The position numbers were made by a program, and so were the translations under genes. A DNA stretch of 476 bases. Source: Escherichia coli (GTDB lineage: Bacteria > Pseudomonadota > Gammaproteobacteria > Enterobacterales > Enterobacteriaceae). Shown here piece after piece: positions 1 to 476 of the stretch. The stretch is taken from the NCBI RefSeq assembly GCF_003334255.1, contig NZ_QOWU01000233.1. The stretch is one strand, 5' to 3'. Positions within the stretch are counted from its first letter, which is position 1. Each line of letters starts with the position of its first letter. The notes beneath the pieces are model-generated. The model was not told the DNA's origin. It did no database searches and saw nothing but the letters and a program-made list of their open reading frames with translations.

Positions 1-72
1 TTGTAAATCCCCGTGAAGGCAGATGCGTGCCAGTGGCGGTGACGCCAGACAGAATGCGTTCGTCGTTGCCAT
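1..72 (-). CDS. I: Tail assembly protein I homologue, N-terminal 24 codons only; start codon at 72..70, continues past the window edge. It overlaps the 3' end of K in a different reading frame.
   Basis: ATG at 72..70 on the minus strand, followed by an open frame to position 1 encoding MATTNAFCLASPPLARICLHGDLQ. The ARICL(H/Y)GDLQ segment matches my recollection of the lambda gpI N-terminus (MAATHTLPLASPGMARICLYGDLQ...). A purine-rich Shine-Dalgarno-like sequence lies upstream. The out-of-frame overlap with K mirrors the arrangement in lambda. Confidence 0.75.
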   Translation of the reverse strand, partial: MATTNAFCLASPPLARICLHGDLQ

Positions 73-476
73 TTTTCAGAATACCTCTCCCGTTTGCTCA
101 GTTGTTCAGGAATATGGTGCAGCAGCTCGCCATCACCACAGTAAATGGCGGCATGATTCGGCACCGATGAACCAAAACAGCACAGCAGCACATCGCCCGG
201 TTGTGCTGATGACAACGGCACCTGATACAGCCCTGTGGCCTCCATATTGTCCAGGTAAAGGTTCTGACCGTTGCACCACCAGTCATCCTCACGGTGAAAA
301 TCCGGCATATCAATGCCTGCCAGATGGTATGCATCCCGGAACAGGGTGTAACAGTCCGTCACCCCGTGCGCAAAGCGCCGTCCGGTCAGGTGCGGAACGC
401 AGCGGAATTTGTGAATGTCACCCCGGCTGACCAGCCACCAGGGCAGTGCGCTTTTTATCTGCAGCCGCCGGTCAGC
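1..476 (-). CDS. K: Tail assembly protein K homologue, C-terminal NlpC/P60 (C40 family) peptidase domain; partial at both ends. The N-terminal MPN/JAB domain and the stop codon both lie outside the window.
   Basis: Manual translation of the reverse complement starting at 476 gives an uninterrupted frame: ADRRLQIKSALPWWLVSRGDIHKFRCVPHLTGRRFAHGVTDCYTLFRDAYHLAGIDMPDFHREDDWWCNGQNLYLDNMEATGLYQVPLSSAQPGDVLLCCFGSSVPNHAAIYCGDGELLHHIPEQLSKRERYSEKWQRRTHSVWRHRHWHASAFTGIY. It has the NlpC/P60 hallmarks: a catalytic Cys in the DCYTLF context (codon 353..351), a His in the NHAAIYCGDG context (155..153) and a downstream His pair (119..114). From memory it is near-identical to the C-terminal half of phage lambda gpK. 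There is no stop across 158 codons. Confidence 0.9.
84..91 (-). promoter_or_regulatory. Putative Shine-Dalgarno / ribosome-binding site for gene I, embedded in the K coding sequence
   Basis: Minus-strand sequence GGGAGAGG at 91..84 is followed by an 11-nt A-rich spacer (TATTCTGAAAA) and then the ATG at 72..70. It contains a GGAG/GAGG core complementary to the 16S rRNA 3' end. The spacing is at the long end of the typical range. Confidence 0.45.

Follow-up and report, generated by a model that had tools for sequence, protein, structure and literature searches.

The DNA stretch analyzed here, 476 nt in length and hereafter called the window, carries the coding sequence for residues 80-237 of a tail tip assembly protein K (gpK) of the lambda type with an apparently intact NlpC/P60 catalytic triad, and the reading that we prefer for this domain is that of a cytoplasmic peptidase acting at the time of tail assembly; taken as a whole, this account is in our view quite probable.

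Translation of the whole window on the minus strand, starting from base 476, gave 158 codons and zero stops, with both the start and the stop codon of K lying outside the window. It is an internal part of the K gene (1..476, -) that was recovered, namely codons 80-237 of a 247-codon gene, residue 1 of the window corresponding to residue 80 of the 247-residue K protein of the closest E. coli relative. The window protein and lambda K share 143 of 158 residues (90% protein identity), and PHROG 30 ('minor tail protein') was matched with an E-value of 7e-98. At the DNA level the window matched 220 phage records, the top one of which was 93.7% identical and annotated as 'tail tip assembly protein K', and the closest DNA matches (94-96%) were named K or 'C40 family peptidase' and located between L and I. 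The gene order in the nearest relatives, with K between L and I and upstream of J, is the same as in lambda. Among complete E. coli genomes, 4366 of 5426 contained matches named 'C40 family peptidase', the median copy number per genome being three. The routine annotation as 'C40 family peptidase' or tail tip assembly protein K was hereby confirmed for the window, and we assign its product on sequence grounds to the gpK/TAPK family, the JAB fusion and the synteny of this family being seen in the relatives.

The K frame is under strong purifying selection, dN/dS being 0.08 in the comparison with lambda, 0.10 with an E. coli prophage, and 0.15 with phage PhiR12_1. Antisense to K a further open reading frame of 135 codons with an ATG start is present on the plus strand (23..430), and lambda too has a similar antisense frame, which is unannotated there. 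That this plus-strand frame is the true gene and the motifs of the K frame are incidental is hardly conceivable: it is long and open and begins with ATG, but neither PHROG nor PADLOC gave a match to it, and the minus-strand K frame shows strong family matches and substitutions relative to its relatives that are overwhelmingly synonymous. It was rejected as a gene and most probably shadows the K frame. Searches of the window using Rfam (E-value up to 1), PADLOC, and a repeat search yielded no further element.

The NlpC/P60 (MEROPS C40) papain-like peptidase domain was located at 42..383 (-), corresponding to window residues 32-145, by means of Pfam, AlphaFold2, and Foldseek. A Pfam search had been proposed in the original prediction as a check of the domain, and the match to the NLPC_P60 model (PF00877) was significant and covered the full length of the model (E-value 2.1e-13, 50.6 bits, query positions 32-145 on model positions 1-105 of 105); the closest full-length relative gave the same PF00877 result. 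By sequence and fold criteria the window protein belongs to the NlpC/P60 superfamily, with a predicted peptidase activity, and a 2020 review had assigned a peptidase domain to gpK using HHpred. The TIGRFAM model TIGR02219 (phage_NlpC_fam, 'putative phage cell wall peptidase') was matched with an E-value of 9e-5 and 22.9 bits against a cut-off of 81.9 bits, and the window protein appears to be a distant relative of this family that stands outside it. Placement of the domain in the LRAT/H-REV107-like acyltransferase branch instead of the peptidase branch is very improbable: the Pfam LRAT model (E-value 0.08, over 46 residues) and the HRASLS3/LRAT chimera 4q95 (E-value 0.58) were weakly matched, each in the His-strand region only, but both matches are below significance, and Cys42 precedes His108 with the entire NLPC_P60 model matched in order. 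LRAT-like proteins are reportedly circularly permuted, with the Cys located after the His. The LRAT-like reading was ruled out by residue order and E-value.

The original prediction had located the putative catalytic residues in the motifs DCYTLFRDAY, NHAAIYCGDG, and GELLHHIPE and had given spacings of about 66 and 12 residues between them. Direct counting agreed with this in every respect, all three motifs being present in the K frame, with Cys42 at 353..351, His108 at 155..153, and His120/His121 at 119..114, and with spacings of 66 (Cys-His) and 12 (His-His) residues. The predicted nucleophile Cys42, which is Cys121 in the 247-residue protein, belongs to the Asp41-Cys42 'DC' motif (351..356, -), the predicted general base is His108 (153..155, -; His187 of the full protein), and the predicted third triad member is His120 (117..119, -; His199 of the full protein). 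His121 (114..116, -) is invariant in the gpK family and aligned to the non-catalytic Ala132 of MepS, while Asp95 of PGDVLL (192..194, -), on the canonical NlpC/P60 'GD' strand, is invariant in alignment A1 and aligned to TGDLVLF of MepS. As judged from the alignments, the predicted triad Cys42-His108-His120 is complete and in the canonical, non-permuted order.

For the conservation analysis an exhaustive homolog search of 1.84 billion cluster representatives was performed, which returned 1919 relatives at E-values up to 1e-3. Among the best 150 of these 1919 relatives Cys42 was present in 129 of 131 and His108 in 134 of 136, with 128 of 132 for His120 and the same count for His121. Alignment A1 was composed of the window and 59 homologs of 36-64% identity (60 sequences), and in this alignment D41, C42, D95, H108, and H121 were invariant and H120 was at least 90% conserved. 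The original claim that the domain is not degenerate was upheld, as the triad is complete, the C-H-H-H residues are kept in 107 of 114 core-covering representatives, and dN/dS in the K frame ranges from 0.08 to 0.15. Two findings had been named beforehand that would speak against an intact core, substituted catalytic positions and the lack of an NlpC/P60 hit, and neither was observed. We infer that the domain is catalytically competent, an intact triad being necessary for this and not proof of it.

A search of the PDB with the single window sequence gave marginal matches (best E-value 0.023), no gpK structure being seen among them, and a profile was therefore required for significance. With the A1 profile, E. 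coli MepS/Spr was found with an E-value of about 1e-6. In the profile alignment Cys42 (lDCytlv) falls on Cys68 of MepS (IDC68SGFV), His108 (pnHaaiY) on His119 (GRH119VGIY), His120 on His131, and His121 on Ala132, so that the alignment to characterised C40 peptidases suggested in the original prediction placed all three predicted triad residues on their MepS counterparts. His131 of MepS is said to be the third triad member. The spacing between the His and the third residue is 12 in gpK, in MepS, and in the C. difficile autolysin 9ubf, and CwlO has an Asn at this offset (12 after the His). Because of the 12-residue spacing and the alignment to His131, the third triad residue was assigned to His120 (119..117), and it is most probably this first His of the HH pair, and not His121, that would complete the triad. 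Since rare homologs have a Gln at either the H120 or the H121 position, the His120 assignment is probable and falls short of proof. His121 (116..114) is conserved more strictly than His120 and is aligned to Ala in MepS and to Asp in CwlO; as a residue invariant in this family in particular, it probably lies outside the canonical triad. An earlier study cites Cys68 and His119 of Spr as catalytic and gives the third residue wrongly (PMC4126393).

The AlphaFold2 model, built on the A1 alignment, had a mean pLDDT of 94.4 and a pTM of 0.88. In this model helix 42-52 begins with Cys42, strand 108-114 begins with His108, and the strand after it (117-120) ends with His120, and the predicted placement of His108 and His120 on adjacent strands and of Cys42 at a helix N-terminus corresponds to a papain-like arrangement. 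Structure prediction with fold comparison had also been proposed beforehand, and its outcome pointed in the same direction: at the top of the list the model matched only solved NlpC/P60 structures, these Foldseek matches in the PDB being 4hpe, 9ubf, MepS (8xud/8xup/7v6s), 2hbw, 3h41, and LytE, with a probability of 1.00 and TM values of 0.5-0.68. Foldseek also returned tail-associated NlpC/P60 examples from the diffocin and phi812 baseplates, and RipD (4jxb), a non-catalytic NlpC/P60 domain, was among the fold matches.

Among these proteins, E. coli MepS/Spr (2K1G, 8XUD) is a peptidoglycan DD-endopeptidase/LD-carboxypeptidase of the same fold (Foldseek probability 1.00, TM about 0.5-0.6). MepS and gpK both have a Cys-His-His triad, a spacing of exactly 12 residues from His to His, and the motifs DC and GD. 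However, their identity is about 19%, the Cys-His spacing is 51 in MepS and 66 in gpK, and MepS carries an Ala where gpK has the second His of the pair. As a lipoprotein, MepS resides in the periplasm, and its muropeptide substrate is known; gpK, predicted to be cytoplasmic, is fused to a JAB domain. Much closer to the window is lambda gpK (TAPK of Iyer et al., 2006), which has the same triad residues and the same HH pair and differs at 15 residues, none of them at conserved catalytic positions. Relatives have the same L-K-I-J order and the same JAB plus NlpC/P60 architecture.

The C-terminal end of the JAB/MPN domain was located at 399..476 (-), covering window residues 1-26, and was recognized through the Prok-JAB match of a full-length relative. 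The full-length K protein of the closest E. coli relative (L001) has 247 residues, with Prok-JAB at residues 3-105 (E-value 9.7e-16) followed by NLPC_P60 at residues 111-224. Of the JAB domain, the final 26 residues fall within the window; L001 has it in full, and so does L014, a human gut metagenome contig that is 100% identical to the window over 91..476. Window residues 1-2, Ala-Asp (471..476, -), end the JAMM motif HSHPGGLPWLSEAD, the closing Asp being encoded at 473..471, and the motif was found in 70 of 94 homologs of at least 220 residues.

In the lambda reference record K is annotated at 199 residues, without the JAB N-terminus and the JAMM Glu. At about position 1767 of the lambda sequence NC_001416 as analyzed here (L003), which is about 14267 of the record, one base is missing in GAGGC-TATTT compared to two prophage/phage K genes. 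This one-base difference lies upstream of the window-equivalent region, and the lambda JAB N-terminus (MTQTESAILAHARRCAPAESCGF...) is therefore found in another frame, in the open reading frame 1634..1864. The missing base may reflect an error in the old sequencing, a lesion of the laboratory strain, or a site of frameshifting. Among the homologs, the E. coli protein P0151 (277 aa) contains a 30-residue tandem duplication, SVANHAAIYCGNGELLHHLPEQLSKRERYS occurring twice at residues about 183-242, by which the His and His-His triad segments are repeated, and P0152 (275 aa), with a length and score near those of P0151, may carry a similar duplication.

In the mechanism proposed by analogy with the rest of the family, His108, oriented by His120, would deprotonate Cys42, the Cys42 thiolate would attack an amide bond to form a thioester intermediate, and water would resolve this intermediate. 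The protein would act in the cytoplasm during assembly on a component of the tail tip, either gpI or the tape measure protein gpH, the latter being converted to gpH*. We prefer such an assembly-time cytoplasmic peptidase over a virion-borne cell wall lysin because of the missing signal peptide, the JAB fusion, the adjacency to and overlap with the gpI gene, the need for gpK in assembly, and the failure to detect it in lambda virions, and we place its chance at even or a little below. The full-length relatives of the window protein are without a signal peptide. gpK is needed for tail assembly according to the lambda structural papers and is known as an assembly factor from genetics only; it was undetected in virions by mass spectrometry (PMC10721106) and not resolved in the lambda virion maps of 2023 and 2025, Ur-lambda included (PMC12617516). 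As to the substrate, TAPK was predicted to process the ubiquitin-like TAPI, and gpI has a conserved C-terminal Gly (Iyer et al., 2006; PMC1779556). In the lambda tail tip maps gpI is visible only from residue 101 or 134-135 onward, and the lambda tail tip literature leaves the catalyst of gpH cleavage unnamed. More specifically, NlpC/P60 and the fused JAB could form a deubiquitinase-like cytoplasmic protease that trims the N-terminal domain of gpI or cuts gpH to gpH*, with His121 in the protein-substrate site; this, the outline of which goes back to a prediction of 2006, we propose tentatively, as somewhat short of an even chance. The likeness of the gpK system to deubiquitinases lies in the linkage of two peptidases, a thiol peptidase of the papain fold and a metallopeptidase of the JAB type, to the ubiquitin-like beta-grasp protein gpI. 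With respect to the eukaryotic enzymes (papain-like DUBs and JAMM/MPN+ isopeptidases) it is a functional analogy only, the link being a prediction from 2006 and any conjugation or deconjugation chemistry in phage tails hypothetical. The literature searched contained no experiments on the catalytic residues or the enzymatic activity of gpK.

Several points can be raised against an assembly-time role. The absence of gpK from virion mass spectra could reflect a single copy per particle, the unseen N-terminus of gpI is equally explained by disorder, and by analogy the solved structural relatives, all peptidoglycan peptidases, would suggest another substrate. The corresponding alternative is that the domain is a virion-delivered peptidoglycan endopeptidase of the gamma-D-Glu-mDAP type, which would pass from the tail tip lumen to the periplasm at infection. 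The close structural matches are all cell wall DL-endopeptidases (MepS, LytE, CwlO, YkfC, and the C. difficile autolysins), for lambda the enzyme cutting the peptidoglycan during entry has yet to be named (PMC11101478), and a similar virion-delivered role was proposed for RcGTA g14 and for roseophage R4C. RcGTA g14 (Rcc01697), likewise an NlpC/P60 protein in the same gene position, being encoded between the gpL-like hub and gpJ-like megatron genes, was shown to degrade peptidoglycan, may be located in the tail lumen, and is required for tail formation (PMC7296036); this syntenic protein would by analogy favor the rival substrate. Unlike gpK, however, RcGTA g14 is a single domain of 150 residues without JAB, and a wall lysin leaves both the JAB isopeptidase fusion and the linkage to a ubiquitin-like protein unexplained. 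The weak match to the putative phage cell wall peptidase model TIGR02219 is in line with lytic activity, but its score is far under the cut-off, and mass spectrometry of purified lambda and the tail tip maps are without gpK. We therefore regard delivery of gpK as a wall endopeptidase as rather unlikely.

Still less probable is that the domain assists tail tip assembly as a scaffold or chaperone lacking catalysis, with the triad kept for structural reasons only. Non-catalytic NlpC/P60 domains are known, RipD being one that was also a fold match here, and gpK is known solely through genetics as an assembly factor. We rate this possibility low because the triad is lost in known pseudo-enzymes of the NlpC/P60 fold, RipD among them, whereas in the gpK family Cys-His-His is kept in all but seven of the 114 representatives, down to about 36% identity, and the K frame is under strong purifying selection.

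The gene is very common in prophages and ordinarily has its triad intact, and there is nothing new in this, the architecture having been published in 2006 and the RefSeq naming being in use in thousands of genomes. The wider relevance lies with lambda, where gpK is among the last tail proteins still to be assigned a location or a biochemical role. The lambda structural papers from 2023-2025 leave three questions, namely the protein that cuts gpH, the fate of the gpI N-terminal domain, and the opener of the peptidoglycan, and with its conserved Cys-His-His site and JAB fusion gpK is an obvious candidate in at least one of the three. The triad assignment supplies precise residues for mutation in gpK.

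The 3' part of K is overlapped in a different frame by an I open reading frame, the first 24 codons of which (MATTNAFCLASPPLARICLHGDLQ) are located at 1..72 (-) with the ATG at 72..70. By its sequence, MATTNAFCLASPPLARICLHGDLQ is the N-terminus of an I protein of the lambda type, the ubiquitin-like gpI. About 103 nt at the 3' end of K are shared with the 5' end of I; in lambda the annotated start of I (14773) precedes the K end by 103 nt, and L014 has the same overlap. RefSeq/PGAP annotation places the I start in an E. coli relative 33 codons later, by which the conserved ARICL(Y/H)GDLQRFG would be lost.

The window is a mosaic with a recombination junction at about 91..96. An exact 101-mer of the window was found in one contig, L014, which is 96.6% identical overall, and an exact 37-mer in 10 IMG/VR contigs, each at most 92.8% identical overall, while the same 37-mer search gave zero matches among the genome contigs searched. 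The 100% identity to L014 covers bases 91..476, and bases 1..95 resemble E. coli SW070917; there are two differences from SW070917 across bases 1..244 and 17 differences from L014 within 15..90. The C-terminal tail of K differs in ancestry from the catalytic core, as does the start of I that overlaps it, and every catalytic residue falls inside the L014-identical part. L014 carries H-M-L-K-I-J arranged as in lambda, its K being 247 codons long and its J frame staying open up to the contig end. As regards the functional prophage tail module expected in the original prediction, intact H-M-L-K-I-J modules were seen in the nearest relatives only. Two substitutions set the window apart from lambda and most relatives and are shared with L014: Arg to Cys at residue 68 (273..275, -) and Glu to Ala at residue 36 (369..371, -), five before the catalytic Cys, both of them in non-conserved columns.
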